The notes below the pieces were generated by a model. The model saw only the letters and a program-made list of their open reading frames with translations. It ran no database searches and was not told the DNA's origin. The translations under genes were made by a program, and so were the position numbers. Below, piece by piece: positions 22,624-48,496 of a DNA stretch of 50,711 nucleotides; within the stretch, counting starts at the first letter, position 1; the number at the start of each line of letters is the position of its first letter. This DNA comes from an uncultured bacterium (GTDB lineage Bacteria > Eisenbacteria > RBG-16-71-46), in assembly GCA_964619155.1 (NCBI GenBank), contig CAZUEM010000007.1:1-50711 (forward strand). The letters run 5' to 3'.

Positions 22624-22652
22624 TTGACCGGGGTCGGGAGGCTGCCTACCGT
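22624..22652 (+). promoter_or_regulatory. putative sigma70-type promoter (TTGACC-N17-TACCGT) upstream of Yip1 gene
   Basis: TTGACC at 22624-29, a 17-nt spacer, and TACCGT at 22647-52. It lies downstream of the tonB hairpin and upstream of ATG 22699. Confidence 0.4.
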
Positions 22653-22698
22653 GGCCGCCGTCTGCCGCATCCCGCCCCTCCGTCCCAGGAGCCCTGCC

Positions 22699-23448
22699 AT
22701 GTCGTTGCAGCCCGAGACGCCCGCCCCCGCGGCGCCGGCGCCTTCGCTTTTCGGGCGCGCCGTCGCGATCTTCACCCGCCCCGCGTCCGCATGGGCCGGG
22801 CTCGAGGAACGGCCCCAGTGGTGGTTCCCGGCGCTGGTCTGCGCCCTGGCCCAGTTCGCCGTGATGCTGCCGCTCTACGAGCGGGCCTACCTGCCCATGT
22901 ACTACGAGCAGCTCGACGCCCAGATCGCCTCCGGGGCGATCGACGCCGCCGCCGCCGACCGGGCCCAGCAGATCATGGAGTCGGGCTTCATGGGCGCGAT
23001 CGTGGCCGGCACGGCCTCGGTGATGGGCGTCCTGATGACGCTGGGACTCGCGCTGCTCGTCTGGTTCGGAGTCGGCTTCATCCTCGGGGCGCGCTTCCGC
23101 TACCGGCTCGCGCTCGAGGTGACGGCCTGGTCGGGGCTGGTCTGGCTCCCGCAGAGCCTCGCGTTCTTCGCGCTCGCCTGGTCACAGGAGACCATGAAGG
23201 GCATCCACTTCGGCCTCGCCGCCTTCCTTCCGGAGGCCGACCCGCCGTCCAAGGTCCAGGCCATGCTCACGGTCCTGCTCGACGTCGTGAGCCCGTTCAA
23301 CGTCTGGTTCCTCGCGGTCGCCGTGCTCGGCTGCGCGGCCCTCAGCGGCGCCCCGCGGCGGAACCTCGCCTGGGTGCTCGGGGGACTCGCGGTGGCGCTG
23401 GGAGTGGTCTCGGCGCTGCTGACGGGCTGGCTCTCCCCGGGCTCCTGA
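22699..23448 (+). CDS. Yip1-domain integral membrane protein
   Basis: ATG 22699 (CAGGAG upstream) within ORF 22615..23448. N-terminal FGRAVAIFTRPASAWAGL...WWFPAL followed by five hydrophobic helices, the pattern typical of the bacterial Yip1/DUF1282 type. Confidence 0.65.
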   Translation: MSLQPETPAPAAPAPSLFGRAVAIFTRPASAWAGLEERPQWWFPALVCALAQFAVMLPLYERAYLPMYYEQLDAQIASGAIDAAAADRAQQIMESGFMGAIVAGTASVMGVLMTLGLALLVWFGVGFILGARFRYRLALEVTAWSGLVWLPQSLAFFALAWSQETMKGIHFGLAAFLPEADPPSKVQAMLTVLLDVVSPFNVWFLAVAVLGCAALSGAPRRNLAWVLGGLAVALGVVSALLTGWLSPGS

Positions 23449-23542
23449 AGCGGCCGCCGCGAAACCCGTTCGCCGCCCGCCCCGTAGACATCGCGCGCCG
23501 TGACACGTCTCGGCGCATCACCGTATCAGCAGCACGAGAGGA

Positions 23543-24838: not shown

Positions 24839-24860
24839 CCCGAAAGGAACGCGTCGCCGC

Positions 24861-26144
24861 ATGAAGAAGAAGGTCTGGCTGTGGGTCGTCCTGGGCGTCG
24901 TGGTCGTGGGCGCCCTCGTGGCCGCGAACGTCGCCCGCAACTCGCGGGGCAAGGTCGAGACCGTGCAGATGGCGCTCGTCCGCCGCGAGGACATCACGTC
25001 GCGCGTCCGTGCGCCGGGGAAGATCGAGGCGAAGACGCGCGTCCAGGTCAGCGCCGACATCATGGGGCGCATCGTGCTGTTGCGCGTGAAGGAGGGCGAC
25101 CGCGTCCGCAAGGGCGAGCTGATGCTGCAGCTCGACGACACCCAGTACCGCAGCGCCCACACCCAGGCGCGGGCCGCGTACGCCGCCGCGCAGGCCCGCC
25201 AGCGCGAGGCGCAGACGACCCTGCGCATCAACGAGGCCAACTTCGCCCGCCAGCGTTCGCTGTACGACCAGAAGCTGCTGTCGCAGGCGGAGTGGGAGCA
25301 GGCCCAGAGCGCGAACGAGAGCGCCCGCGTGGCCGCGGCCACGGCGGCCGAGGACGCGGCGCGCACGAAGGCCGCGCTCGACGCGGCGGCCGACAACCTG
25401 TCGAAGTGCCGCTTCCTCGCCCCGTTCGACGGGGTGGTGAGCGCGCTCAACGTCGAGGCCGGCGAGAACGTCATCATGGGCACCATGAACAACGCCGGCA
25501 CCCAGATCCTCACGGTGTCCGACATGTCGCGCATGCTGGTGCGCGCCGACGTGGACGAGACCGACATCGTGGACCTGAAGATCGGGCAGAAGGTGAAGAT
25601 CTCCGTGGACGCCGTGCCCGACACGACGTTCCCGGGCACGGTGACCGAGATCGGCAACACCGCGAAGCGGTCGCTGACCTCCACGGTCGAGGGCCAGACG
25701 GACTTCGAGGTGAAGGTCGTGTTCGACGACAACGTGCCGCAGGTGCGGCCCGGGATGACCGCGGACGTCAACATCGACACCGGCACGCGCGAGAAGACGC
25801 TCGTGGTGCCCATCCAGTCGGTCGTGGTGCGCACGCAGCGCGAGCTGGACCGCGCCGCCCGCAAGCCGGGCGGGCGCGCGAAGCGCTCGAAGGCGGCCAC
25901 CGTCAGCGCGGACGAGGACACGGTGGGCCGGCGCGACGCCGAGATCACCGGCGTGTTCGTCTCCCGCAACGGGGTGGCGGCCTTCGTGCCGGTCCGCACG
26001 GGCCTCTCGAGCGAGACCATGATCGAGATTTTCGGCGAGCTGAAGGAGGGCGACACCGTCGTGTCGGGCCCCTACAAGGCGCTGCGCGACCTCAAGCCGG
26101 GCGGCAAGGTGAAGAAGGAAGCCGCCGGCAAGGAGAAGAAGTGA
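24861..26144 (+). CDS. efflux periplasmic adaptor subunit (HlyD/MacA family)
   Basis: 427 aa. TM anchor, lipoyl-like segments ([19 protein letters not shown]; [18 protein letters not shown]), a long alpha-hairpin and a beta-barrel domain. Confidence 0.85.
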
Positions 26145-26151
26145 GCCCGGC

Positions 26152-26874
26152 ATGCTGATCCAGATCCGCGACCTGCACCGGCACTACCAGGTGGGCGACC
26201 AGGAGGTCCGCGCGCTCGACGGAGTGGACCTCGACATCGCCCCGAACGAGTACGTGGCGATCATGGGTCCGTCGGGCTCCGGCAAGTCGACGCTCATGAA
26301 CATCCTCGGCTGCCTCGACACGCCGTCGCGCGGCTCCTACCGGCTCAAGGACCAGGAGATCGCGAAGATGTCGGACGACGAGCTGGCCCGGATCCGGAAC
26401 CAGGAGATCGGGTTCGTCTTCCAGACGTTCAACCTGCTCGCTCGCGCCGACGCGCTGCACAACGTCGAGCTGCCGCTGGTCTACGCGGGGCTCAAGCACG
26501 AGGAGCGCCGGCAGCGGGCGCGCGAGAGCCTGGAGCTGGTGGGGCTCGGCGACCGCATGAAGCACAAGCCGAACGAACTCTCCGGCGGCCAGCGGCAGCG
26601 CGTGGCGATCGCGCGCGCGCTCGTCAACCGGCCGAGCATCATCCTCGCCGACGAGCCGACCGGAAACCTGGACTCCCGCACGGGCGAGGAGATCATGGTC
26701 GCGTTCGAGCGCATCTGGCGGCAGGGAAACACGGTGATCCTCGTGACGCACGAGGCCGACATCGCCGAGCACGCGCGGCGCGTCGTGCGCATGAAGGACG
26801 GGCGCATCGAGAGCGACCACCCGAACCCCCATCCGCGCTCGGCGGGCGTCGCGGGGGGCGGCGCGCCCGAATGA
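26152..26874 (+). CDS. ABC transporter ATP-binding protein (MacB/LolD-type)
   Basis: 240 aa. Walker [10 protein letters not shown], signature LSGGQRQR, Walker [13 protein letters not shown] and an H-loop VTHE. Confidence 0.9.
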
Positions 26875-28088
26875 ACCTGCGCGAGAGCATCGGCATTGCT
26901 CTCGGCGGCGTGCGCGCGAACAAGCTGCGGTCGTTCCTCACGCTCCTCGGGACCATCATCGGCGTCTCGTCGGTGATCGCCGTCGTGTCGTTCGTCGAGG
27001 GACTCAACCGTTTCGTCACCCAGAAGCTGCTCAACGCGGGCGCGAACGTGTTCGTGGTGGACAAGTACGGGTTCATCACGAGCCGCGAGCAGTTCGAGGA
27101 GGCGGTGAAGCGGCCCGACGTCACCCTGGAGGACGCCGAGGCGCTCCGGGACGGCGTCGAGCACGTGACGCTGGTGGTGCCGCAGGCCGGGGCCGCCGCG
27201 CCGCTGCGCTACCGCAACCGCACCATGCGGGCGGTGTCGCTGCAGGGGCGGGGCGCCGGCTACGACCTCGTGGACGACGTCGCGATCGGCGAGGGCCGGC
27301 ACCTGTCGGAGTTCGACGACATCGGCCGGCGGCCGGTGTGCGTCGTCGGGCCGGAGGTGGCCGAGGAGTTGTTCGGTTCGCTGCCCGCCCTGGGCCGCTC
27401 GATCCGGGTGGGGGCGTACGAGTTCCAGGTGGTCGGGGTGACGAAGGCGAAGGGCAAGATGTTCGGCCAGTCCCAGGACCGCTTCGTCACCGTGCCGATC
27501 CGGACGTTCCAGAAGTACTGGCAGGCGCGCGGGTCGCTGCAGATCGCGCTCAAGAGCGTGGACCAGTCCTCGATGCCGCTGGCCGAGCAGGAGGCGCGCA
27601 ACATCATGCGCGCCCGGAGGCACCAGCGTCCGGGCCAGCCCGACGCGTTCGGCATCACGAACTCCGAGACCTGGCTGACGCTCTACCGCACGCTGACCGG
27701 AGGCATCTTCATCCTCACGATCGGCGTGTCCGCGATCTCGCTCGTGGTCGGCGGCATCGTGATCATGAACATCATGCTCGTGTCGGTGACCGAGCGGACG
27801 AAGGAGATCGGCGTGCGCAAGGCGCTCGGCGCGCGCCGCCGCGACATCCTCACCCAGTTCCTGGTCGAGGCCACGACGCTGTCGCTCTCGGGCGGCCTCA
27901 TCGGCATCGTGCTCGGCGGCGGGCTCGCGCTGCTCGTCGGAGCGGTCAGTCCGCTCCCGGCGGCCCTCAGCCTGCCCGCGGTGCTCCTCGGCATCGTGAT
28001 GAGCACGGGCGTCGGCGTGTTCTTCGGCTCCTACCCGGCCTTCCGCGCGGCCCGCCTCGACCCGATCGAGGCGCTGCGATACGAGTGA
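26871..28088 (+). CDS. ABC transporter permease (FtsX/MacB-type, with periplasmic domain)
   Basis: 405 aa. TM1, a large periplasmic domain, then the FtsX module ([34 protein letters not shown]). The start overlaps the ATPase stop. Confidence 0.85.
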
Positions 28089-28092
28089 CGCG

Positions 28093-29364
28093 ATGAAGCT
28101 CGGCTTCCTGGTCCGCGAGACGTTCGCGATGGCGCGCGGCGCCCTGGTGGCGAACCGGATGCGCTCGGTGCTGGCGCTGCTGGGCGTGGTCATCGGCGTC
28201 GCGACCGTGATCAGCATGGTGTCGCTCATCAACGGCTTCCAGCGCTCGTTCCAGCAGAGCATCCAGTCGTTCGGCAACAACACGATCTACATCCGCCGCA
28301 TCCGGCCCGGCATCAGCTTCTCGGACGGCATTCCCGACAGCCTCAAGCAGCGCAAGGCGTTCTCGATGGAGGACGCGCGCGCGATCCTGGAGCAGGCCCC
28401 CGCGGTGCGCGCGGTCGCTCCGCTCAAATGGCCGTTCAACGACATCACGCTGAACCACCGCGGCCGGAACACGCGCTCGACGTTCGTCTTCGGCACGAAC
28501 GAGGCGTACCTCGTGGCCCACAGCTACGACCTCTCGCGCGGCCGGTTCTTCACGCAGGAGGAGGTGCGGAAGAACGCCAACGTCGTCGTGATCGGCAAGG
28601 ACACGCGCGAGACGCTGTTCGGCACCGCCAGCGGCATCGGCAAGACCATCCGCGTCGGCGGGATCCCGTTCACGGTGATCGGCGAGTTCGAGGAGAAGGG
28701 ACGTTTCCTCGGGAACAACTTCGACGAGGTGGCGTGCGTCCCGTTCACGGCGGTGGACAAGTACTGGGCGGCGCCTTCCGACGCCCCGCCGTGGGTGCCC
28801 CGCAAGGGCGAGCTGTTCCTGGACGCGGTGGCCGTCTCGCCGGAGCAGAGCGAGGAGGCGATGCGGCAGATCTCGGAGGTCCTGCGGGTCCGCCGGCAGG
28901 TGCCGAGCAACAAACTGAACGACTTCGTCGTGTTCAGCGACGACGCGTTCCTGTCGCTCTACAACACGGTCACCGGCGGCATCGTGGCCCTCATGACCCT
29001 GATCTCGTCCATCTCGCTGCTGGTCGGCGGCATCGGCGTGATGAACATCATGCTCGTGGCCGTGACCGAGCGGACGCGCGAGATCGGCGTGCGCAAGGCG
29101 CTCGGCGCCCCGCGGCGGGCCATCCTGCTGCAGTTCCTGCTGGAGTCGGTGCTGCTCACCGCGGGGGGCGGCCTGCTCGGCGTGCTGATCGGCGCGGGCG
29201 TGGCGTGGCTCGTGCGCGCCCTGAGCCCGCTGCCGACGTTCGTCTCGCCCTGGTCGGTGGTCACGGGCCTCGTCTTCTCGGCCGGGATCGGCATCTTCTT
29301 CGGGCTCTACCCGGCGATGCGCGCCTCCCGGCTCGACCCGGTGGACTCGCTGCGCTACGAGTAG
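28093..29364 (+). CDS. ABC transporter permease (FtsX/MacB-type), second paralog
   Basis: 423 aa with the same architecture ([34 protein letters not shown]). Confidence 0.85.
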   Translation: MKLGFLVRETFAMARGALVANRMRSVLALLGVVIGVATVISMVSLINGFQRSFQQSIQSFGNNTIYIRRIRPGISFSDGIPDSLKQRKAFSMEDARAILEQAPAVRAVAPLKWPFNDITLNHRGRNTRSTFVFGTNEAYLVAHSYDLSRGRFFTQEEVRKNANVVVIGKDTRETLFGTASGIGKTIRVGGIPFTVIGEFEEKGRFLGNNFDEVACVPFTAVDKYWAAPSDAPPWVPRKGELFLDAVAVSPEQSEEAMRQISEVLRVRRQVPSNKLNDFVVFSDDAFLSLYNTVTGGIVALMTLISSISLLVGGIGVMNIMLVAVTERTREIGVRKALGAPRRAILLQFLLESVLLTAGGGLLGVLIGAGVAWLVRALSPLPTFVSPWSVVTGLVFSAGIGIFFGLYPAMRASRLDPVDSLRYE

Positions 29365-29412: not shown

Positions 29413-32289
<2,877 letters not shown>

Positions 32290-32339
32290 CGACCACCGCA
32301 ACCGCTGAGCACGTTCGAACGTCGACGCGGGCCCGGACG

Positions 32340-33383
32340 ATGAAGGCCATCGTCAAGGCCGCGTCCGCACCCGGCATCGAGATTCGCGAGGTGCCGGTGC
32401 CCGTCCCCGGACCGGGCGAGATTCTCCTCAAGGTCAAGCGCGCCGGCGTGTGCGGGACCGACCTGCACATCTGGGTGTGGGACCGCTGGTCGCAGGGGCG
32501 GGTGAAGCCGCCGGTGACGGTGGGGCACGAGTTCGTCGGCGAAGTGGTCGAGCTCGGCCCGGACGTGACGAACGTGAAGCTCGGGGACCTCGTGTCCTCG
32601 GAGAGCCACGTCGTCTGCCACACGTGCACGGCCTGCCGCAACAACCTCGGCCACGTCTGCGAGAACACCCGGATCCTGGGCGTGGACATCAACGGCGGCT
32701 TCGCCGAGTACGTGGCGATCCCGGCCGTCAACGCCTGGCACATCCCGCCGGGCATCCCGATCGAGGTCGCCGCGATCATGGAGCCCACGGGCAACGCGGT
32801 GCACACCGCGTTCGCCGGGCCGCTGTCCGGCTGCAACATCGGCGTCACGGGCTGCGGGCCGATCGGCCTGTTCTCGATCGGCATCGCGAAGGCGGCCGGC
32901 GCCACCCGGGTGATCGCCTCCGACGTCTCGCCGTACCGGCTCGAGCTCGCGCGCCGGATGAACGCGGACGCGGTCATCGACGTCTCGAAGGAGAGCTTCG
33001 TGGACCGCGTGCGCGAACTGACGCACGGCCGCGGCCTGGACGGCGTGCTCGAGATGTCGGGCAAGCCCGAGGCGATGCGCGACGGGCTCATGGCGCTCCG
33101 CAACGGCGGGCGGCTGTCGCTCCTCGGCCTGCCGTCGGAGCCTTTCGATCTCGACTGGAACCGCCTGCTCATCTTCAAGGGCATCACGCTGCACGGCATC
33201 GTCGGCCGCCGGATGTACGAGACCTGGGACCAGCTCGACCAGCTGCTGCGCTCGGGGCGCCTCGACCTGCGGCCGTCCATCACGCACACCATGCCCATGG
33301 AGGAGTTCGACGCCGCCATCGCCCTGCTCCGCGAGGGGCGGGCGGGCAAGGTCGTGCTGGTGCCGTGGGGCGAGAAGGCCTAG
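32340..33383 (+). CDS. tdh: L-threonine 3-dehydrogenase
   Basis: ATG 32340 gives MKAIVKA..., colinear with E. coli Tdh. Zn-ADH motifs [10 protein letters not shown] and [12 protein letters not shown], plus GCGPIGL for NAD binding. An alternative ATG at 32286 overlaps the uvrA stop. Confidence 0.85.
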
Positions 33384-33396
33384 GGGGGGCGCGAAC

Positions 33397-34605
33397 GTGT
33401 ACGACACCCTGAAGCCGGCCCTGGCGGCCGAGCTGGCGAAGATCCGCGACGGCGGGCTCTACAAGGGCGAGCGCGTCATCGCCTCCCCGCAGGGGGCGGC
33501 GGTGCGGCTCGAGGACGGGCGCGAGGTGCTGGTCTTCTGCGCCAACAACTACCTCGGGCTCTCCAGCCACCCGAAGGTCATCGAGGCGGCGCACCGCGCG
33601 CTCGACTCGCACGGTTACGGCATGTCCTCGGTGCGCTTCATCTGCGGCACCCAGGACCTGCACAAGCAGCTCGAGCGCCGGATCTCGGAGTTCCTCGGCA
33701 CCGAGGACACGATCCTCTACGCGGCCTGCTTCGACGCGAACGGCGGCGTGTTCGAGCCGCTGCTGGGCGAGCACGACGCCGTGATCAGCGACGCGCTCAA
33801 CCACGCGTCCATCATCGACGGCGTGCGGCTGTGCAAGGCGAAGCGCTGGCGGTTCGAGAACAACGACATGGGCGACCTCGAGCGCTGCCTGAAGGAGGCC
33901 GACGCCCAGGGCTGCCCGCAGAAGCTGGTCGTGACGGACGGAGTCTTCAGCATGGACGGAACGATCGCCAACCTGAAGGCGATCGTGGAACTGGCCGAGA
34001 GGCACCGGGCGCTGGTCATGATCGACGAGTGCCACTCGATGGGCTTCGTCGGCCGGACCGGACGGGGCACCCCCGAGCTGCACGGGGTGCAGGGCCGCGT
34101 GGACATCATCACGGGCACGCTCGGCAAGGCCCTCGGCGGGGCGCTCGGGGGCTTCACCTCGGGGCGGCGGGAGATCGTCGAGATGCTGCGCCAGCGCTCG
34201 CGGCCCTACCTGTTCTCGAACGCGCTGCCGCCGGCGGTCGTGGGGGCGAGCATCGCCGTGTTCGACCTGCTGTCGTCCACGACCGAGCTGCGCGACCGGC
34301 TCGAAGCGAACACGATCCGCTTCCGCGAGGGGATGACCAGGGCGGGCTTCGAGCTGAAGCCCGGAAGCCACCCGATCGTGCCCATCATGCTGTACGACGA
34401 GCGGCTCGCGCACGACATGGCGGCGAAGCTGCTCGAGCGCGGCATCTACGTCATCGGCTTCTCGTTCCCGGTCGTCCCGCGCGGCCAGGCGCGCATCCGC
34501 GTGCAGCTCTCGGCGGCGCACACCGACTCGCAGATCGACCGCGCGATCGCCGCGTTCACCGAAGTCGGGCGCGAACTCGGCGTGCTGAAGGCCGCGGCGC
34601 GCTGA
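33397..34605 (+). CDS. kbl: glycine C-acetyltransferase (2-amino-3-ketobutyrate CoA ligase)
   Basis: 402 aa. Alpha-oxoamine synthase pattern with [20 protein letters not shown] and the PLP-lysine motif GTLGKALGG. It lies directly after tdh. Confidence 0.9.
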
Positions 34606-34685
34606 CGGGCGACGGGTTCCGGGCGACGGGCGCTCCGCGCGGGGCGCCCGCCGCCTCACGCGCCCGCCCCGCGCCCGCCGGAAGC

Positions 34686-34714
34686 TTGACCCGTCCGGGA
34701 GCGCGGCCTACCTT
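34686..34714 (+). promoter_or_regulatory. putative sigma70-type promoter (TTGACC-N17-TACCTT) upstream of gcvT
   Basis: TTGACC at 34686-91, a 17-nt spacer, and TACCTT at 34709-14. CAGGAG follows at 34738-43 and GTG at 34751. Confidence 0.45.
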
Positions 34715-34750
34715 CGCCGCGCACGTCCCTCTCACACAGGAGCGACTCGC

Positions 34751-35860
34751 GTGACACCCGCCACGACACTCAAACAGACTCCGTTCACGGAGTTCCATCG
34801 CGCGGCCGGCGCGAAGCTCGTGGAGTTCGCGGGCTTCGAGATGCCGGTCCGGTACACGGGCGACGTCCGGGAGCACCTCGCGGTGCGCAACGCCGCCGGC
34901 CTCTTCGACATCACCCACATGGGCGAGTTCGAGGTGCGCGGCGCCGGCGCCTCGGCCTGGCTCGACCGGATGGTCACGAACCACGTCGGCGGCATGGCCG
35001 TGGGCCAGGCGATCTACTCGCCGATGTGCCGGCCCGACGGCGGCATCGTGGACGACCTGCTCGTCTACCGCTACGACGACCACTACATGCTGGTCGTGAA
35101 CGCCTCGAACATGGCGAAGGACTTCGCCTGGCTCGACGCGCACCGGCCGGCGGACGTGACGCTGGTGGACCGCTCCGCCGAGACGGCGCTGCTCGCGCTG
35201 CAGGGCCCGAAGGCGGCCGCCGTCCTGGCGGGCGCGGTTCCGCCGGCGGCGCTCGACCTCGGCTTCTACCGGTTCACGACCGGCGCGGTCTTCGGCGCGC
35301 CCGCCACGATTTCGCGCACGGGATACACGGGCGAGGACGGCTTCGAGCTCTACTTCGCCCCGGCGCACGGCGCGCAGGTCTGGCAGGGGCTGGTCGCCGC
35401 CGGCGCTCCGCACGGCCTCGAGTTCATCGGGCTCGGCGCGCGCGACACGCTGCGCCTCGAGATGGGCTACATGCTCTACGGGAACGACATCGACGACACC
35501 ACGACGCCGCTCGAAGCGGGGATCGGCTGGACGGTGAAGCTCGCCAAGGGCGATTTCCACGGCCGCGACGTGATGGTGAAGCAGAAGGCCGAGGGCCTGA
35601 AGCGCAGGCTCGTCGGCTTCCAGCTCGACGGCCGCCGCGTGCCGCGCCACGGCATGACCATCGTCTCGGCGGGCCGGCCCGTCGGCCGGGTGACCAGCGG
35701 GACCTTCAGCCCGACGCTCGAACGGCCCATCGGCATGGGCTACGTCGAGACGCCGCTCGCGGCGCTCGGGACCGACATCGAAATCCAGGCCGGAAACGCC
35801 TTGCTGCCCGCGCGGGTCACCGCGCGGCCGTTCCACACGCGCGGCTCGATCCGCTCCTGA
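34751..35860 (+). CDS. gcvT: glycine cleavage system aminomethyltransferase T
   Basis: 369 aa. FAGFEMPVRYTG..EHLAVRNAAGLFDITHMGEF and YTGEDGFEL are characteristic GcvT motifs. Confidence 0.9.
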   Translation: MTPATTLKQTPFTEFHRAAGAKLVEFAGFEMPVRYTGDVREHLAVRNAAGLFDITHMGEFEVRGAGASAWLDRMVTNHVGGMAVGQAIYSPMCRPDGGIVDDLLVYRYDDHYMLVVNASNMAKDFAWLDAHRPADVTLVDRSAETALLALQGPKAAAVLAGAVPPAALDLGFYRFTTGAVFGAPATISRTGYTGEDGFELYFAPAHGAQVWQGLVAAGAPHGLEFIGLGARDTLRLEMGYMLYGNDIDDTTTPLEAGIGWTVKLAKGDFHGRDVMVKQKAEGLKRRLVGFQLDGRRVPRHGMTIVSAGRPVGRVTSGTFSPTLERPIGMGYVETPLAALGTDIEIQAGNALLPARVTARPFHTRGSIRS

Positions 35861-35872
35861 GCCGCAGGGAGG

Positions 35873-36268
35873 ATGCACGTGGGTTACCCGGACGACGTCC
35901 GCTACACGAAGGATCACGAGTGGGCCCGCGAGGAAGGCGGGCTGATCACGGTCGGCATCACGGGCTGGGCGACCGACCAGCTCGGTGACGTGGTGTTCGT
36001 CGAGCTGCCCGAGCCCGGGCGCGCGCTGGAGGCCGGCAAGGCGTTCGGCGTCGTCGAGGCGGTGAAGACGGTGAGCGACCTCTACGCCCCGGTCGCGGGC
36101 GAGGTCGTGGAGGTGAACGGCGCGCTGGCGGACAACCCGGCGGTCGTGAACCAGTCGCCCTACGGCGACGGCTGGATGATCCGGATCCGGCCGGCGAACG
36201 CCGGCGACTTCGCGACGCTCCTCTCGCACGACGACTACGAGAAGCTGATCGAGGAGCAGCACGCCTGA
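35873..36268 (+). CDS. gcvH: glycine cleavage system H protein
   Basis: 131 aa. YTKDHEWAR and the lipoyl-lysine motif VEAVKTVSDLYAP, then NQSPYGDGWM. Confidence 0.9.
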   Translation: MHVGYPDDVRYTKDHEWAREEGGLITVGITGWATDQLGDVVFVELPEPGRALEAGKAFGVVEAVKTVSDLYAPVAGEVVEVNGALADNPAVVNQSPYGDGWMIRIRPANAGDFATLLSHDDYEKLIEEQHA

Positions 36269-36294
36269 GCCTCCCGCCCGCCGCGGCCCGCGCG

Positions 36295-36843
36295 GTGCGC
36301 CGGGCGGGGGCGGCCCGCCGCCGGGTGCTCCGCCTCCTGGCGGCGGCCGTGGCCGCGGCGGCCGTTGCGGCCGCGCCTGCGGGCGCGGCCGGCGCTCCGC
36401 CGCCGCCGCCGTCGCCGCCTTCGGCGCTGATGTTCCAGGACGTCCCGGGCGACGCCGGGCACGCGCTCGACCTCGACTGGGCGCTCTCGCCGGACGACAC
36501 CGCCGGCGGGGCGGGCGTGAGCGGGTACCTGCTGCTGCGCGCGAACTCGCCGGGGGGGCCGTGGGCGGTGATCGAGTCCGTGGGCGCGGGCGTGCGGCGC
36601 ACGCGTGACGGGGCCGCGCACCGCGACTCGGCCTACTTCTACCGCGTCGTCGCCGTGGGCCCCGGGGGGCGGACGCCGGCCGGCGCGGTCGCGGGCCCGG
36701 CGATCGCCCGCGCGGCCTGGTACCTCACCGAGTGGGCCGCGCTGGGGGCCGCGCTCCTCGTCGGGGCGATCGGCTGGGGTGTGCTCTCGCGCCGCGCCAG
36801 ACGCCCCCGGAACGCGGCCGGGGACGCACCCGGCGAGCCGTGA
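36295..36843 (+). CDS. hypothetical FN3-like exported protein with C-terminal TM anchor
   Basis: 182 aa. Ala-rich signal peptide, a single beta-sandwich-like segment (VSGYLLLRANSPGGPW...AYFYRVVAVGPGG), a TM helix (WAALGAALLVGAIGWGVL) and a basic tail. The stop overlaps the next gene's GTG. Confidence 0.5.
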   Translation: MRRAGAARRRVLRLLAAAVAAAAVAAAPAGAAGAPPPPPSPPSALMFQDVPGDAGHALDLDWALSPDDTAGGAGVSGYLLLRANSPGGPWAVIESVGAGVRRTRDGAAHRDSAYFYRVVAVGPGGRTPAGAVAGPAIARAAWYLTEWAALGAALLVGAIGWGVLSRRARRPRNAAGDAPGEP

Positions 36844-37634
36844 GCGCGGACCTTCCGGTGGTGCTGTGGTGCGATGGGGCGCACCCGGCCCCGGAAAACA
36901 TGCGCCGCGACGCCGCGCTGCTCGCGGCCGCCGCCGCGGACCCGGAGCGGCCTGCGGTGCTGCGCCTGTTCCGCTTCGCGCCCCCGGGCGTGACGCTGGG
37001 CGCGAACCAGCTCCCCGAGCGCGAACTGGACCTGCCGCGCCTCGCCGCGTCGGGGGTGGAGTGGGCGGTGCGCCCGACGGGCGGCCGCGCCATCTGGCAC
37101 GACGAGGAGTGGACGTTCTCGCTCTCGGCGCGGCTCGGGCCCGGGGGATGGGCGGCGGACGCGCGGGCGGCCTACGCGCGCACCTCCGGGCTGCTCGCGG
37201 GCGCGTTCCGGGCTCTGGGCGTGCCGGTGGAACGGTCGGCGGGCTCGCCGCGGGGCGTGGGCGCGCCCCGGGCGCACGGCGGCCCCGCGGCCCCGTGCTT
37301 CGCCTCGACGGCGCGCCACGAGCTGACGCTGGAGGGACGCAAGTTCGCGGGCATCGCCCAGCGCGAGAGCGGCGGGGCGCTGCTGCAGCAGGGGAGCCTC
37401 CTTCTCGGCGAGTCGCACCTGCGGCTGGCCGCGTGGCTGCGCCTCGGGGACGCGGATCGCACCCGCGTGCGGGAGGCGCTCGCCGCCTCGACCGCGCACG
37501 CCGGCCGCTGGCTCCCGCCGGGGACGCCCGTCGGCGTGCTCGCGGACGCGCTGGCCGCGGCGCTGCCCGGCGCCCGGCGCGTGACGGGCCCCGAGGGCGA
37601 CGTGCTCGCGGAAGCTCCCGGGGCGCGCGGGTGA
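36840..37634 (+). CDS. lipoate-protein ligase / octanoyltransferase family protein (BPL_LplA_LipB domain)
   Basis: GTG 36840 within ORF 36732..37634. Motifs RPTGGRAIWHDEEWTFS and LEGRKFAGIAQR (catalytic Lys) match the LplA/LipB fold. It sits in a glycine-cleavage context. Confidence 0.75.
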   Translation: MSADLPVVLWCDGAHPAPENMRRDAALLAAAAADPERPAVLRLFRFAPPGVTLGANQLPERELDLPRLAASGVEWAVRPTGGRAIWHDEEWTFSLSARLGPGGWAADARAAYARTSGLLAGAFRALGVPVERSAGSPRGVGAPRAHGGPAAPCFASTARHELTLEGRKFAGIAQRESGGALLQQGSLLLGESHLRLAAWLRLGDADRTRVREALAASTAHAGRWLPPGTPVGVLADALAAALPGARRVTGPEGDVLAEAPGARG

Positions 37635-42635: not shown

Positions 42636-43612
42636 GCGCGCCGCTGCTCGCGGTGAGCGGGCTCACCAAGCACTTCCCGATCCGGCGGGGGTTGTTCGGC
42701 CGCGTGACCGGCCAGGTGAGGGCGGTGGACGGCGTCAGCTTCGAGGTGCGCCGCGGCGAGACGCTGGGGCTCGTGGGCGAGAGCGGCTGCGGCAAGACCA
42801 CGACGGGGCGCGCCATCCTGCGGCTCGTGGAGCCGACCTCCGGCAGCGTGCGCTTCGACGGCGCGGAGGTGACGCGGCTGCGCCGCCCCGAGTTGCGCGC
42901 GCTGCGCCGGCGCATGCAGATCGTCTTCCAGGATCCGTATTCGAGCCTCAACCCGCGGCTCACGGTCGGGGCGATGATCGGCGAGGCGCTCTCCATTCAC
43001 CGTCTCGCCCGCGGCGCGGCGGCGCGCGAGCGGATCGCCGAACTGCTCTCGCTGGTGGGTCTGTCGCCGGACCACGCCCGGCGCTACCCGCACGAGTTCT
43101 CGGGCGGCCAGCGGCAGCGCATCGGCATCGCCCGGGCGCTGGCCGTGGGGCCGGAACTGCTCGTCCTCGACGAGCCCGTGTCGGCGCTCGACGTCTCGAT
43201 CCAGGCGCAGATCGTGAACCTGCTGCAGGACCTGCAGGAGCGGCTCGGCCTCACGTACGTGTTCGTGGCGCACGACCTGTCCGTGGTCGAGCACATCAGC
43301 ACGCGCGTCGCGGTCATGTACCTCGGCCGCATCGTGGAGATCGCCGGGCGCGACGAGCTGTACGCGAACCCGCGGCATCCGTACACGCAGTCGCTGCTCT
43401 CGGCGGTGCCGGTCCCGGACCCGGAGCGGCCGCGCTCGCGGATCGTGCTCGAGGGCGACGTGCCGAGCCCGGCGCGGCCGCCCTCGGGCTGCGCGTTCCA
43501 CCCGCGCTGCTTCCTCGCGGCGCGGACGCCCGGCCGGGAGCGCTGCGCCGCCGAGCGGCCGGAACTGCGCGAAGTCGCCCCGGGGCACTTCGTGGCCTGC
43601 CACTTCGCCTGA
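42632..43612 (+). CDS. ABC transporter ATP-binding protein (OppF/DppF type)
   Basis: GTG 42632. Walker [33 protein letters not shown] and a C-terminal GCAFHPRC motif. Confidence 0.9.
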
Positions 43613-44116
43613 CCGCCGGCGGGCGGCGCGCGGCCCCTGCGCGATCCGCCCCGGCCGCCGGGAGAAATCCCCCGAACGGCGCCGCCCCGCGGCGGGGCAG
43701 GACGCGACCGCGCAACGCGCCGGCGGGCGGCCTGCAACGCGGGGCCGCCGCCGGAGGCCCGGAATCGCGGGGTTTCGCGCAACGGCGCACCGAGTGACAC
43801 GCACATGCGCCGGGCCGGGGGGCCTCGCGGCGTCCGGCACCGCCCTTGCAGTGATCGTCCCGTGAAGGCTCGAGCGACGAACGCCGCAACGTCGAAAGAG
43901 CGGCGCGAGGCGCGAAGGGCCCACAACCGAACGGGAAGTGTTCCCTGGTCGACTCGTGATTGGCAGTTGGTGGGCTGATCCCCCTATCGCGAGCGAAGGA
44001 GTCTACCGGACCGCACACGGTCGTATCGGGGAACTTATTGACGGGCCCTGCTGCCTGCGGCGCCATTGGCCTCCGTGCTCGACTCACGCGACCGTGACGC
44101 AGGGCCCATGAAAGGC

Positions 44117-44146
44117 GAGCCGCGCCCACCCCGGTGGGCGCGGCTC
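44117..44146 (+). terminator. very strong hairpin inside the long gap upstream of the BMC locus
   Basis: AG-GCCGCGCCCAC / CCCG loop / GTGGGCGCGGC-CT, a perfect 13-bp stem (44117-29 with 44134-46). Followed by CGGCGTTTGCGG, a weak U-tract. No plus-strand CDS ends within 500 nt, so it may close a non-coding transcript. Confidence 0.35.
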
Positions 44147-44180
44147 CGGCGTTTGCGGTGCGCGGCCCGCGCCTCGGGCG

Positions 44181-44209
44181 TTGACCATTGCGCGGCCGGG
44201 GTTTAGCTT
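44181..44209 (+). promoter_or_regulatory. putative sigma70-type promoter of the BMC operon (TTGACC-N17-TAGCTT)
   Basis: TTGACC at 44181-86, a 17-nt spacer, and TAGCTT at 44204-09. It lies about 50 nt upstream of the first shell gene. Confidence 0.45.
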
Positions 44210-44216
44210 CCGGCCA

Positions 44217-44242
44217 CCCGCGACGGTTGCCGCCGTCGCGGG
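44217..44242 (+). promoter_or_regulatory. 5'-UTR stem-loop at predicted BMC transcript start
   Basis: CCCGCGACGG (44217-26) pairs with CCGTCGCGGG (44233-42) around the loop TTGCCG. It sits just before GGAGG (44253-57) and ATG 44260. Confidence 0.35.
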
Positions 44243-44259
44243 CACCGGTACGGAGGCGC

Positions 44260-44553
44260 ATGGAAAGTCCTCGAGCCCGCCGGGCCCTCGGCCTGGTGGA
44301 AACGCGCGGTTTCACGGCGGCGGTCGAAGCCGCCGACGCCATGGCGAAGGCGGCCCGCGTGGAGATCGTCCGCTACGAGGTGGTGCGGGCCGCGCTGGTG
44401 ACGGTGCTCGTCCGGGGACCGCTCGCCGAGGTCGAGGCCGCCGTCGCGGCGGGCTCGGCGCAGGCGGCGCGCGTCGGCGAGGTGTTCCGCGCCCACGTGA
44501 TCCCGGCCCCGGCGCCCGACATCGAGTTCATCCTGGAGCGGCGCCGCTCCTGA
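44260..44553 (+). CDS. BMC-H shell protein (Pfam00936 hexamer), divergent pore/edge
   Basis: ATG 44260 within ORF 44188..44553. [26 protein letters not shown]...LVTVLVRG...[11 protein letters not shown] is colinear with PduA/EutM. The pore loop reads YEVVRAA instead of YEKIGSG, and IPRPH is replaced by IPAPA. Confidence 0.85.
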
Positions 44554-44600
44554 AGGACCGCCGCGCCCGCCCGAGTCCGCAGCACCACACGGAGGTAGCG

Positions 44601-44900
44601 ATGCAGGAAGAGGCCCTGGGTCTGATCGAGACGCGCGGATTCGTCGCGATGGTCGAAGCGTCGGATGCGATGGTGAAGGCCGCGCGCGTGACGCTGGTCC
44701 ATTACGAGAAGATCGGCGGCGGCTACGTGACGACCGTCGTGCGCGGCGACGTCGCGGCGGTGCGCGCGGCGACCGAGGCCGGCGCGGCCGCGGCCGCGAA
44801 GGTGGGCGAGGTGGTCTCCGTGCACGTCATCCCGCGCCCGCACGGCCAGCTCGAGGACGCGCTGCCCATCCGGCAACCCGACGCTCCGGCCAAGAAGTAG
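44601..44900 (+). CDS. BMC-H shell protein (canonical hexamer)
   Basis: ATG 44601 (GGAGG upstream) within ORF 44181..44900. [50 protein letters not shown]...VHVIPRPH is a near-consensus PduA/CcmK-like sequence. Confidence 0.9.
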
Positions 44901-44902
44901 CG

Positions 44903-45208
44903 ATGATCCTCGCGCAGGTGCTCGGCACGGTCGTGTCGACGCGCAAGGACCCGGGGCTCTCGGGCCTCAAGCTCATGCTCGCCCGCGAGGTGGACGGCCA
45001 GTTCAAGCCGGCCGGGAACTTCGTGGTGGCCGTGGACGCGGTGGGCGCGGGGGCGGGCGAGCTGGTGCTGGTCGCCGCCGGGTCCTCGGCCCGCCTGACC
45101 GAGGTCACGAAGGACCGGCCGGTGGACCACGTCATCTGCGGCATCGTGGACGCGGTCGAATCGGGCGGCCGTGACGTCTACCTGAAGAGCGCCGGGCTCC
45201 CGGGCTGA
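44903..45208 (+). CDS. BMC-P vertex protein (EutN/CcmL family)
   Basis: 101 aa. MILAQVLGTVVSTRK...VAVDAVGAGAGELVLVAAGSSAR...VDHVICGIVD matches the EutN/PduN pattern. Confidence 0.85.
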   Translation: MILAQVLGTVVSTRKDPGLSGLKLMLAREVDGQFKPAGNFVVAVDAVGAGAGELVLVAAGSSARLTEVTKDRPVDHVICGIVDAVESGGRDVYLKSAGLPG

Positions 45209-45215
45209 CCCCGCC

Positions 45216-46628
45216 ATGTCGCTCGACCCCGCGCGCATCGAGTCCATCGTCTCCGAGGTGCTCGCGCGCCTCGACGCGCCCGGGGGCGCGGGGCCCGGCG
45301 GCACGCCGGGTCTGCACCGCACGCTCGACGAGGCGGTGGCCGGCGCGAGGCGCGCCTTCGCCGCGTTCCGCGAGGTGCCCGTCGAGGTGCGGGGCCGCAT
45401 CGTCGCGGCCGTCCGCCAGGCGATGCTCGCGAATCTCGATCTGCTCGCGAAGACGGCCGTGGACGAGACCGGGCTCGGGCGCGTCGCGGACAAGCTCCTC
45501 AAGAACCGCCTCGTGGCCGAGAAGACCCCCGGCGTCGAGGACCTCGAGCCGGGCGTTTGGACGGGCGACCACGGGCTGACGCTCTGGGAGCGCGCCCCGT
45601 ACGGACCCATCGCGGTGATCACGCCGGTCACGAACCCGAGCGAGACCATCATCTGCAACGGCATCGGCATGATCGCCGGCGGCAACACCGCGGTCTTCTG
45701 CCCGCACCCGGGCGCGCGCAAGGTCTCGACGCTCACGATCGACCTGTTCAACCGCGCGGCGCGCCGCGCCGGCGCCCCGGAGCCGCTGCTGCACACGGTC
45801 GAGGAGCCGACGATCGACGTGGCCAAGGCGCTGCTGCGCTACCCGGGCATCCGGCTCAACGTCGTCACGGGCGGCCCCGGGGTGGTGAAGGAAGCGATGG
45901 ACTCGGGCAAGAAGTCCATCTGCGCCGGGCCGGGCAACCCGCCGTCGGTGGTGGACGAGACCGCCGACCTCGACCAGGCCGCGCGCGACCTCGTCATGGG
46001 CGCCTCGCTCGACAACAACATCATCTGCACCGACGAGAAGGAGATCGTCTGCGTCTCGATCGTCGCCGACCGGCTCAAGGAGCGGATGGCGGCGGCGGGC
46101 GCCGTGGTGCTGGCGCCGCACCAGGTCGAGCAGGTGCGCAGGCTCGTGCTCGAGTACGAGAAGGGCCCGCGCCGCCACGCGGGCGTGAACAAGAAGTACG
46201 TCGGCCGCGACGTGGACGTGATCCTGCGCGACGCCGGCATCCCGTGCGACCCGGCGAAGCGCCTCGCGCTGTGCGAGGTGGACGGCGACCACCCGTTCCT
46301 GTGGACGGAGATGATGATGCCGGTGCTGCCGCTCGTGCGCGTGCGGAACGTGGACGAGGGGATCGACTTCGCTCTCGAGGTCGAGCACGGCTACCGCCAC
46401 ACCGCCTCGATGCACAGCCGCAACATCGACAAGCTCTCGAAGATGGCGCGCGCGTGCGACTGCTCCATCTTCGTGAAGAACGGCCCCAACGCCGCGGGAC
46501 TGGGCTGGAACGGGGAAGGCCCGACCAGCTTCACGATCGCGAGCCCCACCGGCGAGGGCATGACCACGGCGCGCAGCTTCACGCGGCTGCGCCGCTGCAC
46601 CCTCGTGGACCGGTTCCGGATCGTATGA
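45216..46628 (+). CDS. CoA-acylating aldehyde dehydrogenase (PduP/EutE-like) with N-terminal encapsulation peptide
   Basis: 470 aa. N-terminal amphipathic helix LDPARIESIVSEVLARL plus a Gly/Pro linker. The ALDH core has ITPVTNPSET, GPGNPP and the catalytic-Cys segment LDNNIICTDEKE, as in BMC-associated AldDH. Confidence 0.85.
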   Translation: MSLDPARIESIVSEVLARLDAPGGAGPGGTPGLHRTLDEAVAGARRAFAAFREVPVEVRGRIVAAVRQAMLANLDLLAKTAVDETGLGRVADKLLKNRLVAEKTPGVEDLEPGVWTGDHGLTLWERAPYGPIAVITPVTNPSETIICNGIGMIAGGNTAVFCPHPGARKVSTLTIDLFNRAARRAGAPEPLLHTVEEPTIDVAKALLRYPGIRLNVVTGGPGVVKEAMDSGKKSICAGPGNPPSVVDETADLDQAARDLVMGASLDNNIICTDEKEIVCVSIVADRLKERMAAAGAVVLAPHQVEQVRRLVLEYEKGPRRHAGVNKKYVGRDVDVILRDAGIPCDPAKRLALCEVDGDHPFLWTEMMMPVLPLVRVRNVDEGIDFALEVEHGYRHTASMHSRNIDKLSKMARACDCSIFVKNGPNAAGLGWNGEGPTSFTIASPTGEGMTTARSFTRLRRCTLVDRFRIV

Positions 46629-47176
46629 ACCCCGTCGCCATCGCCGCGGTCGAGACCTCGAGCATCGCCCAGGGCGTCGTCGCCGCCGACGCCATGCTCA
46701 AGACGGCCGACGTCGGGCTGCTGCAGGCGGCCACGCTCTCGCCCGGGCGCTACTGGGTGCTGATCGGCGGCGAGGTCGCGCCCGTGCGGGCCTCGCACCG
46801 GCGCGGGGTCGAGGTCGCGGCCGACGCGCTGCTCGACCAGCTCTTCATCCCGCAGCTGCACGAGGGCGTGCTGCCGGCGCTGCGCGGCGCCGTGCCGCTG
46901 GGGGCCGACGACGCGCTCGGCATCCTCGAGACCCTCACCGCCGCCTCGGCGATCGTCGCCGCGGACGCGGCGGTCAAGGCGGCGAACGTGACCGTGCGCG
47001 ACGTGCGGCTGGCGAACGGCATCGGGGGCAAGGGAGTCGTGTCGCTCTCCGGCCCGGTGAGCGCCGTGCAGGCCGCCGTGGAGGCGGGCCGCGCGGACGC
47101 GCTCCGGCGCGGGCTGCTCGCGCGCTCGGTGGTGATCCCGCGCCTCGACCCGCAGCTGCGCGCCCGGATGGGCTGA
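46625..47176 (+). CDS. BMC-T shell protein (tandem BMC domains, PduT-like)
   Basis: ATG 46625 overlaps the AldDH stop (ATGA). 183 aa with two BMC domains colinear with PduT (AIAAVETSSIAQGVVAADAMLK...; LGILETLTAASAIVAADAAVKAANV...GIGGKGV...VIPRL). Confidence 0.8.
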   Translation: MNPVAIAAVETSSIAQGVVAADAMLKTADVGLLQAATLSPGRYWVLIGGEVAPVRASHRRGVEVAADALLDQLFIPQLHEGVLPALRGAVPLGADDALGILETLTAASAIVAADAAVKAANVTVRDVRLANGIGGKGVVSLSGPVSAVQAAVEAGRADALRRGLLARSVVIPRLDPQLRARMG

Positions 47177-47460
47177 TGCACTTCGCGCGCGTCATCGGCA
47201 CGGTCGTCTGCACCGAGAAGGTGCGGCCCTGGCGCGGCGCCCGGCTGCTGCTGATCGAGCCCTGCGACTCGGCGGGCGCGGCGAGCGGGGCGCGGCCGCT
47301 CGCCGCCGTGGACCTCGTCTCGGCGGCGCCGGGCCAGCTGGTCTTCTACGTGCGCGGCCGCGAGGCCGCCGTGGCGCTGCGCGACCCCGAGAACCCGGCC
47401 GACGCGGCCATCGTCGGGATCGTGGACGCGGTCCGCGAGGCGCCCGGGGCGGTGCGCTGA
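47176..47460 (+). CDS. BMC-P vertex protein (EutN/CcmL family), second copy
   Basis: 94 aa. MHFARVIGTVVCTEK...AAVDLVSAAPGQLVFYVRG...AAIVGIVD. The start overlaps the upstream stop. Confidence 0.8.
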   Translation: MHFARVIGTVVCTEKVRPWRGARLLLIEPCDSAGAASGARPLAAVDLVSAAPGQLVFYVRGREAAVALRDPENPADAAIVGIVDAVREAPGAVR

Positions 47461-47732
47461 TGTTCCTCGCGCGGGTCGTGGGCGAGGTGGTCGCCACGAT
47501 CAAGCACCCGCACCTGCACGCGCAGCGGCTGCTGCTCGTGCAGCCCGAACCCACCCCGGGGCGCGCGCGGCCGCAGTCGGTGATCGCGGTGGACAGCGTG
47601 GACGCGGGGATCGGCGACCGGGTCCTGGTGGCCGACGAGGGCAACACCGCCGCCCAGGTCCTGCGCATGGCGCGCGGCCCGGTGCGCACCGTGATCGTCG
47701 GGGTCGTGGACGAAACGGACCTGCCGGTCTGA
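47460..47732 (+). CDS. BMC-P vertex protein (EutN/CcmL family), third copy
   Basis: 90 aa. MFLARVVGEVVATIKHP...IAVDSVDAGIGDRVLVADEGN...TVIVGVVD. The start overlaps the upstream stop. Confidence 0.8.
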   Translation: MFLARVVGEVVATIKHPHLHAQRLLLVQPEPTPGRARPQSVIAVDSVDAGIGDRVLVADEGNTAAQVLRMARGPVRTVIVGVVDETDLPV

Positions 47733-47751
47733 ACCCCGGCTCGATCCGGAC

Positions 47752-47780
47752 TTTACCGGGGGGCGCGCGGCGATTATTTT
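47752..47780 (+). promoter_or_regulatory. putative sigma70-type promoter (TTTACC-N17-TATTTT) upstream of FmdB-like gene
   Basis: TTTACC at 47752-57 and TATTTT at 47775-80, an unusually AT-rich hexamer for this genome. Confidence 0.4.
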
Positions 47781-47805
47781 CCCCGGGTCACGTGCGGGGG
47801 TGGGT

Positions 47806-48039
47806 GTGCCGCTCTACGACTACCGATGCACCGCGTGCCGACGTAACTTCGAGTCGTTGCTCGACCGCTGGGACTCCCCGGCGCCGCCCTGCCCGCACTG
47901 CGGGGCCGCGGCGGTCCAGCGGCAGTTGAGCGTCTTCGCCGTCGGGGCCGCTTCGGAGACCTGCGACTCGCCGCGCCGTGGCAGCGGCGCGGGGCCGTGC
48001 GGGTCCTCGGGCTGCGCCTGTCGTCCGTTACCGAACTGA
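47806..48039 (+). CDS. FmdB-family zinc-ribbon protein (CxxC...CxxC)
   Basis: GTG 47806 gives MPLYDYRCTACRRNFE...CPHCG, the canonical N-terminus of the FmdB/CxxC_CxxC_SSSS family. The tail is Cys/Gly-rich. Confidence 0.75.
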   Translation: MPLYDYRCTACRRNFESLLDRWDSPAPPCPHCGAAAVQRQLSVFAVGAASETCDSPRRGSGAGPCGSSGCACRPLPN

Positions 48040-48070
48040 TGTCGCCGAGGTTCTTCAGGGGGGAACCCAC

Positions 48071-48376
48071 ATGACGAAGGCCGACCTGGTCGACTCGATC
48101 GCGCAGGAGAGCGGGATCTCCCGCAACCATGCGGCGATCATCGTCGACGGACTGCTCGACGCGGTGTGCCGCGCGCTGAGCGAAGGCAAGCATCTCGAGA
48201 TCCGCGGATTCGGCACCTTCAAGGTCCGCGAGCGACGCGCCCGCCGTGCCCGCAACCCCCGGAGCGGCACGGAAGTGCTGGTGCCCGCGAAGCTCGTCCC
48301 CGTTTTCAAGCCCAGCCGGGAGCTCAAGGCTCTCGTGCTGGAGCGCGCCAACCAGGAACAGACGGTCGCCGGCTGA
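48071..48376 (+). CDS. HU/IHF-family DNA-binding protein
   Basis: ATG 48071 within ORF 47978..48376. MTKADLVDSIA...IRGFGTFKVRERRARRARNPRSGTEVLVPAKLVPVFKPS is the classic HU/IHF fold with its beta-arm. Confidence 0.9.
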   Translation: MTKADLVDSIAQESGISRNHAAIIVDGLLDAVCRALSEGKHLEIRGFGTFKVRERRARRARNPRSGTEVLVPAKLVPVFKPSRELKALVLERANQEQTVAG

Positions 48377-48400: not shown

Positions 48401-48496
48401 ATGGGTTCTGGAAAGAAGCGGAAGCGCAAGAAGATCGCCACCCACAAGCGTAAGAAGCGCCTCCGGAAGAACCGCCATAAGAAGCGCATCCGCTGA
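48401..48496 (+). CDS. 31-aa highly basic peptide, bS22-like (AURKAIP1/COX24-type small ribosomal protein)
   Basis: Not in the ORF track because it is too short. AAGGAGCAGGA RBS, then ATG 48401: MGSGKKRKRKKIATHKRKKRLRKNRHKKRIR, ending TGA 48494-96. Resembles mycobacterial/Bacteroidetes bS22 ([21 protein letters not shown]...) from memory. Confidence 0.6.
   Translation: MGSGKKRKRKKIATHKRKKRLRKNRHKKRIR

Follow-up and report, generated by a model that had tools for sequence, protein, structure and literature searches.

In the window analysed here, 50,711 nucleotides (50.7 kb) of contig CAZUEM010000007.1 of an uncultured bacterium, seven genes at positions 44260-47732 encode a bacterial microcompartment (BMC) shell together with a single enzyme. 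The locus is almost certainly a member of the MIC7 type, Ts_drab subtype, of Candidatus Eisenbacteria, where MIC stands for Metabolosome with Incomplete Core (PMC8217296). We lean towards regarding MIC7 as the reduced descendant of a fuller metabolosome, with its partner enzymes supplied in trans. The overall account, which blends the MIC7 identity with this reductive origin and in-trans mechanism, appears reasonably probable to us.

The window has a G+C content of 72-80%. Calling genes as long open reading frames (ORFs) failed at 70-75% GC, and genes were called instead from third-position GC (the GC3 frame method). The seven genes all lie on the plus strand in the order BMC-H, BMC-H, BMC-P, aldehyde dehydrogenase (AldDH), tandem BMC-T, BMC-P and BMC-P, as follows:

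44260-44553, plus strand: H1, BMC-H paralogue 1 (PF00936 BMC, 3.4e-25)
44601-44900, plus strand: H2, BMC-H paralogue 2, the canonical major shell hexamer (PF00936, 6.8e-30)
44903-45208, plus strand: P1, BMC-P paralogue 1, a pentamer and vertex protein (PF03319 EutN_CcmL, 5.6e-29)
45216-46628, plus strand: AldDH, CoA-acylating, of the EutE/PduP type, the sole enzyme of the locus (PF00171; NF011927)
45228-45308, plus strand: encapsulation peptide and linker at the AldDH N-terminus, with an amphipathic helix at residues 5-19 and a Gly/Pro-rich linker at residues 20-31
46625-47176, plus strand: BMC-T, tandem BMC domains, a pseudohexameric trimer (two PF00936 domains, 1.9e-39)
47176-47460, plus strand: P2, BMC-P paralogue 2 (PF03319, 8.5e-22)
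47460-47732, plus strand: P3, BMC-P paralogue 3 (PF03319, 9.3e-24)

Gaps of 47, 2 and 7 nt lie between the first four genes, and the following ones overlap by 4, 1 and 1 nt. The coordinates and the Pfam and NCBIfam matches agree with the initial annotation, which had described seven tightly packed or overlapping plus-strand genes encoding a full shell set and one enzyme. H2 carries the KIGGGY pore and the IPRPH edge and scores 137.7 bits with the EutM model NF012018 (cut-off 133). H1, 57% identical to H2, is a specialised hexamer protein with the non-canonical pore loop YEVVRAAL, which lacks the Gly-rich motif, and with IPAPAP at the edge in place of IPRPH; these motifs are kept in most orthologues recovered with an H1 query across the lineage. 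The three BMC-P paralogues are mutually 39-42% identical (P2 to P1 and P3, 39-41%; P3 to P1 and P2, 41-42%). As predicted from their sequences, the gene products comprise all parts of an icosahedral shell: H2, H1 with its altered pore, a BMC-T lacking an Fe-S site, and three pentamers that differ from one another.

The MIC7 type was catalogued by Sutter et al. (2021, Nat Commun 12:3809, Supplementary Data 2; PMC8217296) from six loci in Eisenbacteria and Latescibacteria genomes. According to the catalogue, MIC7 loci have a standard and a specialised BMC-H, an AldDH with an N-terminal encapsulation peptide, three BMC-P that belong to different major clades (green, grey and orange), and BMC-Ts of the "drab" kind, without a pore cysteine and without a PduS neighbour (PMC8217296). 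Two proteins of RBG_16_71_46 are tagged as MIC7 (main) in the catalogue trees: A2W00_06470, a 182-aa BMC-T of "Ts_drab", and A2W00_06480, a 101-aa BMC-P of "fadedGreen" (PMC8217296). The RBG_16_71_46 contig MFFQ01000037 (L001) reads LplA, OppABCDF, a spacer of ~700-800 nt, H, H, P (101 aa), AldDH, T (182 aa), P, P, HU, RNase and PilZ. Gene order and flanks are identical to those of the window, with protein identities of 69-91%; the window BMC-T is 71% identical to the 182-aa BMC-T, and P1 is an 81% identical orthologue of the 101-aa BMC-P, which by size and type matches the tagged A2W00_06480 and so suggests the green clade for P1. The GC content of the window is likewise in line with the name of this metagenome-assembled genome (MAG), RBG_16_71_46. 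The catalogue text matches our locus feature by feature, in the phylum, the sole AldDH with its encapsulation peptide, the two kinds of BMC-H and the BMC-T without Cys. Because gene order and flanks match the RBG_16_71_46 locus, and the Ser pore and the two BMC-H kinds match the catalogued type, we assign the window locus to MIC7.

This assignment has two consequences for the initial annotation. Its reading of an incomplete-core metabolosome was right in substance and equals the term MIC used in the field. The novelty it implied, that of an undescribed type in a poorly sampled lineage, does not survive the orthology with the catalogued locus: locus type, phylum, gene content and the status of function unknown were all published in the 2021 BMC catalogue. 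The annotation had also considered a clean fit to a described type with known satellite core genes. The fit to MIC7 was found, but the known satellite enzymes were not, as the catalogue lists BMC-Tdp as the only MIC7 satellites and no satellite enzymes, and its Tdp tree supplement has no Eisenbacteria entry (PMC8217296).

The AldDH belongs to the EutE/PduP-type acylating subfamily, with 620 bits to NF011927/PRK15398 (cut-off 403). Among solved structures, it is nearest to the aldehyde dehydrogenases of BMCs (5JFL/5JFM/5JFN, 6GVS and 4C3S), the best entry in the PDB being 5JFL (4e-128), with which the catalytic Cys aligns. This residue, Cys271 in the motif NNIICTDEKE, is invariant in 23 homologues. 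Homologues of the AldDH number thousands, and the named ones at 70-92% identity come almost all from Ca. Eisenbacteria MAGs, including RBG_16_71_46. Residues 5-19 (DPARIESIVSEVLARL) place hydrophobic side chains at i, i+3, i+4, i+7, i+8 and i+11 before the Gly/Pro linker; the 23 homologues show little or no variation at I8, I11, V12, V15, L16 and L19, and the linker is unconserved. The N-terminal peptide presumably targets the AldDH into the shell, to judge from this conserved amphipathic face, and the subfamily match and the peptide both bear out the cargo enzyme proposed earlier. No other protein of the 50.7-kb window has a terminus resembling an encapsulation peptide.

The BMC-T had been described as PduT-like. 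It shares the tandem BMC-domain fold with PduT of the Pdu microcompartment, and TIGR02526 aligns to it end to end (residues 5-178). The identity as PduT did not hold, as the BMC-T reaches 86 bits where the model's cut-off is 250, and a Ser (ATLSPGRY) sits where PduT has its Fe-S ligand. In PduT, the pore Cys ligates a [4Fe-4S] cluster and the protein pairs with PduS, whereas the window BMC-T has Ser and there is no PduS hit.

We surveyed the ~48 called genes of the window by reading their translations, with Pfam checks on ten flank genes, and recognised no signature enzyme among them. The PduL-type phosphotransacylase family (PF06130) gave no match in the window. The sole gene with an alcohol dehydrogenase (ADH) fold is a Tdh-like Zn-ADH at 32286-33383, 11 kb from the locus and without an encapsulation peptide. 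Aldolase_II, phosphotransacylase (PTAC) and PduS had no match within ~10 kb around the locus in the related genomes (L001-L031) or in the metagenome loci, and 377 kb of related metagenome contigs contained no homologue of PduL, PduS or the class II aldolase. The absence of a signature enzyme, PTAC or ADH near the locus, as claimed initially, is therefore upheld in the window, and none lies directly beyond the locus in any of over 100 related loci. In this the locus differs from the canonical metabolosomes with a complete core (PDU, EUT, GRM, PVM and RMM). We also queried a set of 5.8 billion proteins with the class II aldolase and PduL of the sister locus introduced below. Every inspected match labelled as Eisenbacteria sits in a complete locus of the kind described below, which is a weak negative for satellite partners in the MIC7 lineage as whole genomes were unscanned. 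The inspected matches in complete loci were the aldolases P0151, P0198 and P0147 (the last on the contig of L041), the PduL P0291, and the unlabelled P0182, P0209 and P0337.

When one genome for each GTDB species was scanned, 80 loci came up, and the window proteins were mapped onto them. The MIC7 set (L003-L031 and RBG_16_71_46) comprises ~29 species with an AldDH at least 70% identical; beyond it, AldDH identity falls abruptly to 60% or less. The loci of this set that extend far enough reproduce the architecture and flanks of the window exactly, with no extra enzyme. All seven ORFs are intact in the ~29 species, among which H2 is 86-96% identical. Approximate dN/dS values over the seven genes are 0.03-0.4 (H2, 0.03-0.11), akin to those of OppF and HU. 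The locus is vertically inherited and under purifying selection.

The cassette is nonetheless not universal at its site. A metagenome scan with an intergenic motif linked to Opp recovered 80 contigs of the lineage, 59 of them with enough downstream DNA. These run on into H1 or H2 in 52 cases, and seven of the 59 have no BMC genes just downstream of the motif, so the BMC cassette must be dispensable in some genomes. It is polymorphic, present or absent, at a fixed site of the chromosome within a conserved neighbourhood. In four contigs, a secreted S8 subtilisin-like protease of ~670 aa occupies the place of the BMC (L111 11041-13116, minus strand; L138 1351-3393, minus; L141 757-2751, plus; L154 338-2353, plus). 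In another (L161 9842-10520), the cassette is absent and the Opp-linked element leads straight into HU.

A second group of loci occupies the same site with more genes. In L037, L038, L041 (labelled Candidatus Effluviviaceae), L042, L043 and L047, the AldDH is 56-60% identical to ours, and the core order H-H-P-AldDH-(X)-T-P-P is followed by HU and PilZ as in MIC7, but with insertions. Effluviviacota has been described as a sister phylum of Eisenbacteria, with BMC genes including PduP (2024, PMC11323493). According to Pfam, L037 has a PduL-type phosphotransacylase (PF06130) upstream, a PduS-like Nuo51/RnfC/4Fe-4S protein between AldDH and T, and, past the last BMC-P, a class II aldolase (PF00596) followed by an S49 peptidase. 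Its PduL bears an N-terminal encapsulation peptide (MEDVERIASEVLRRL), its aldolase combines a Cys-rich segment and a long linker with an encapsulation peptide (DEAIVQAVIREVQKAL) at the C-terminus, and its BMC-T keeps the pore Cys (ATAICPGKF). In every context inspected, the complete loci L083-L089, L210 and L211 read GT-GT-PduL-H-H-P-AldDH-PduS-T-P-P-aldolase-S49-HU-31aa-(flavin reductase)-PilZ, where GT is a glycosyltransferase and 31aa a small gene discussed below.

The complete loci, labelled Ca. Eisenbacteria or Ca. Effluviviaceae at NCBI, share with the window the core order, the downstream HU, 31-aa gene and PilZ, the N-terminal encapsulation peptide of the AldDH and the BMC-P triplet. 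They differ by the addition of PduL, a PduS-like flavoprotein, a BMC-T with Cys, a class II aldolase and an S49 peptidase, and by having glycosyltransferases rather than Opp as upstream neighbours. The pore residue of the BMC-T is Ser in 30 of 30 MIC7-lineage loci and Cys in 15 of 15 complete loci, and the Cys-to-Ser change is coupled to the absence of PduS. In a neighbour-joining (NJ) tree of 89 AldDHs, a tight MIC7 clade is joined next by the solo AldDH of L034 and then by the complete-locus clade, with other phyla outside; many of these outer loci carry a class II aldolase or PduS.

Two observations concern individual relatives. The solo AldDH (L034 9743-11338, plus strand; MAG ant_bin.20, labelled Eisenbacteria) is a 532-aa protein with a clear N-terminal encapsulation peptide and an exceptionally long linker (~60 aa), and there are no shell genes within 10 kb of it. 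The Cys-rich segment of the class II aldolase (L037 14128-15003 and homologues including P0151, P0160 and P0182; for instance CFSCGACD or CVSCGAC) lies between the catalytic domain and the C-terminal peptide, is conserved, and co-occurs with PduS and a Cys-bearing PduT. It may be a metal or Fe-S site.

From these comparisons we propose that one ancestral metabolosome lay upstream of HU and that, in the lineage of the window, the genes for PduL, PduS, aldolase and peptidase would have dropped out of the locus. The cysteine of PduT would then have disappeared along with its redox partner PduS. Because the fuller sister locus at the shared site carries a class II aldolase, the ancestral chemistry may have been of the aldolase type, with cleavage of a sugar phosphate yielding lactaldehyde or glycolaldehyde, as in PVM-like BMCs. 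The present compartment would oxidise a short-chain aldehyde to acyl-CoA inside the shell, the enclosed AldDH presumably converting aldehyde, CoA and NAD+ into acyl-CoA and NADH. The aldehyde source and the recycling of CoA and NAD, encoded neither in nor near the locus, would be supplied in trans in the MIC7 lineage.

Several points weigh against this reductive scenario. A partner enzyme for the MIC7 lineage was not found, all seven inspected aldolase and PTAC homologues being in complete loci. For the polarity, loss rather than gain, the basis is synteny together with an NJ tree rooted at its midpoint. Since the extreme GC3 (>90%) depresses dS, the dN/dS values are approximate. The catalogue places the MIC7 AldDH nearest SPU3, of the deoxyribose-phosphate type (PMC8217296), whereas the neighbours in our NJ tree are mostly class II aldolase loci; because of this disagreement, the ancestral substrate is uncertain.

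The most serious alternative, which we consider possible but clearly less probable than the reduced descendant with partners in trans, is that MIC7 forms a self-sufficient organelle with no encapsulated partners anywhere in the genome. The AldDH alone would scavenge cytosolic or external aldehydes, and NAD+, CoA or acyl-CoA would cross the shell, perhaps via the H1 pore or the Cys-less BMC-T. Such an organelle would fit the lack of tagged PTAC, aldolase, PduS or ADH in the window, the lack of partners within ~10 kb of the locus in ~29 genomes or in the 377 kb of metagenome contigs, and the lack of a satellite among the homologues inspected. The conserved non-canonical pore loop of H1 without a Gly-rich motif and the purifying selection on a partnerless locus point the same way. 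However, the absence of partners is a weak negative, coming from the surroundings of the locus and not from whole genomes, and the characterised metabolosomes all recycle their cofactors internally (PMC8217296). A bolder version, in which a minimal one-enzyme metabolosome evolved from an organelle with aldolase, PduL and PduS-PduT and exchanges NAD+ and CoA through the H1 pore and the Cys-less BMC-T, strikes us as rather unlikely. If true, a one-enzyme MIC7 would break the rule of internal cofactor recycling in metabolosomes.

We find it very improbable that the locus is a degenerating remnant, left over once the genes for aldolase, PduL and PduS had been deleted and by now unable to form a working organelle. 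The fuller locus of the sister lineages at this site and the missing cassette in seven of the 59 related contigs might suggest decay, but the seven ORFs remain intact across the ~29 species with a strongly constrained H2, the catalytic Cys is invariant, as is, at least nearly, the encapsulation peptide's hydrophobic face, and the Cys-to-Ser change in BMC-T is fixed in all 30 loci, unlike random decay. A previously undescribed BMC type, to which the unassigned function and the missing signature enzyme might point, is refuted by the orthology with the RBG_16_71_46 MIC7 locus, identical in locus and flanks, and we give it practically no credence.

The genes around the locus agree with their earlier description as an Opp/Dpp-type importer on one side and FmdB, HU, a bS22-like peptide, RNase and PilZ on the other. 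Upstream lie an Opp-type importer, with Pfam matches to SBP_bac_5 and ABC_tran/oligo_HPY, and LplA; the downstream genes encode a Zn-ribbon (FmdB-like) protein, HU, a basic peptide of 31 aa, an RNB/S1 RNase and PilZ. The highly basic bS22-like peptide (MGSGKKRKRKKIATHKRKKRLRKNRHKKRIR; 48401-48496, plus strand) directly follows HU, and a 31-aa gene occupies the equivalent position in the complete loci L083, L084, L088 and L210. Together with HU and PilZ, it marks the common right-hand boundary of the BMC site. Just upstream of Opp, genes at 32286-37634 (plus strand) encode the Tdh-like Zn-ADH, a Kbl-like class I/II aminotransferase, GcvT, GcvH, a protein of unknown function and LplA. This cluster looks like threonine-to-glycine catabolism with glycine cleavage; its proteins bear no encapsulation peptides, and no link to the BMC was found. 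We rejected a functional link of the BMC with Opp or with Tdh/Kbl/GcvTH/LplA, as the Opp adjacency is limited to this lineage, with glycosyltransferases in its place in the sister loci, and Opp also persists where the BMC is absent. A scan of 43500-48100 for sigma-70 promoters and intrinsic terminators found nothing above shuffled sequences. Farther upstream, genes at 19117-29364 (plus strand) were read by eye as two STAS-like proteins, ExbB, two ExbD, TonB, a TolC-like and an HlyD-like protein, a MacB-type ATPase and two FtsX-type permeases; at 18-22 kb, the GC content is 64-67%, below the rest of the window.

The spacer of 650 nt between OppF and H1 contains an additional conserved feature:

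43940-44034, plus strand: RNA-like hairpin of ~95 nt, core GGGCUGAUCCCCCUAUCGCGAGCGAAGGAGUC

This element is nearly invariant, and the remainder of the spacer is variable. It also occurs at 8618-8738 of L001 and 850-971 of L003, and is found on the same strand in 28 of 28 lineage loci with upstream DNA; the complete loci lack it. It folds into a long irregular hairpin of 28 pairs (99.1% of cells paired). Among 27 sequences, five pairs show compensatory changes, and the covariation score was reached in none of 500 shuffles, with far lower values for slid controls. The single-sequence energy is ordinary for the GC content (z = -1.06), and Rfam gave no match. The element always follows OppF on its strand, at a distance of ~300-370 nt, and does so regardless of whether BMC-H1, the S8 protease or HU comes next. 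Since it stays beside OppF in the seven of 59 contigs without BMC genes after it, we rejected a riboswitch or BMC-specific regulator and regard it as Opp-linked or independent. It is a candidate for a new small RNA or an element of the Opp 3'-untranslated region of Eisenbacteria.

The field recognises loci with AldDH only (MIC, HO and FRAG types) as an open problem, for which Eisenbacteria MIC7 is a useful case study. New here are the conservation in ~29 species and dozens of metagenome contigs, the syntenic fuller relatives and the proposed reductive origin. MIC7 and the complete loci make a natural "before and after" pair for the loss of signature and cofactor-recycling enzymes, and the fuller relative offers a hypothesis for the ancestral chemistry, a sugar-phosphate aldolase producing lactaldehyde or glycolaldehyde. 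The compact seven-gene operon would also be a convenient minimal system for expressing a shell with its cargo.

Compared with catalogued MIC7, the window locus shows no structural difference, and, set against six loci in the catalogue, the Eisenbacteria form is now seen in the genomes of ~29 species and in over 50 metagenome contigs. The complete loci, untyped here, resemble the PVM-like, MUF2 and MIC4 types by architecture. The PVM BMC of Planctomycetes and Verrucomicrobia, which acts on fucose and rhamnose (Erbilgin et al., 2014, cited in PMC8217296), uses a class II aldolase of the same family as the sister complete loci. It shares with the window an acylating AldDH with an encapsulation peptide, but holds aldolase, PTAC and lactaldehyde reductase within its locus, whereas the window locus has none of these. 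The HO BMC of Haliangium ochraceum, a structural model shell, is alike in its unknown function, the AldDH in its main locus, the BMC-P triplet and the lack of an obvious signature enzyme there. It differs in its phylum, in having an aldolase satellite, and in its one BMC-H and three BMC-T, including a double-stacking Tdp, compared with the two BMC-H and one BMC-T of the window.

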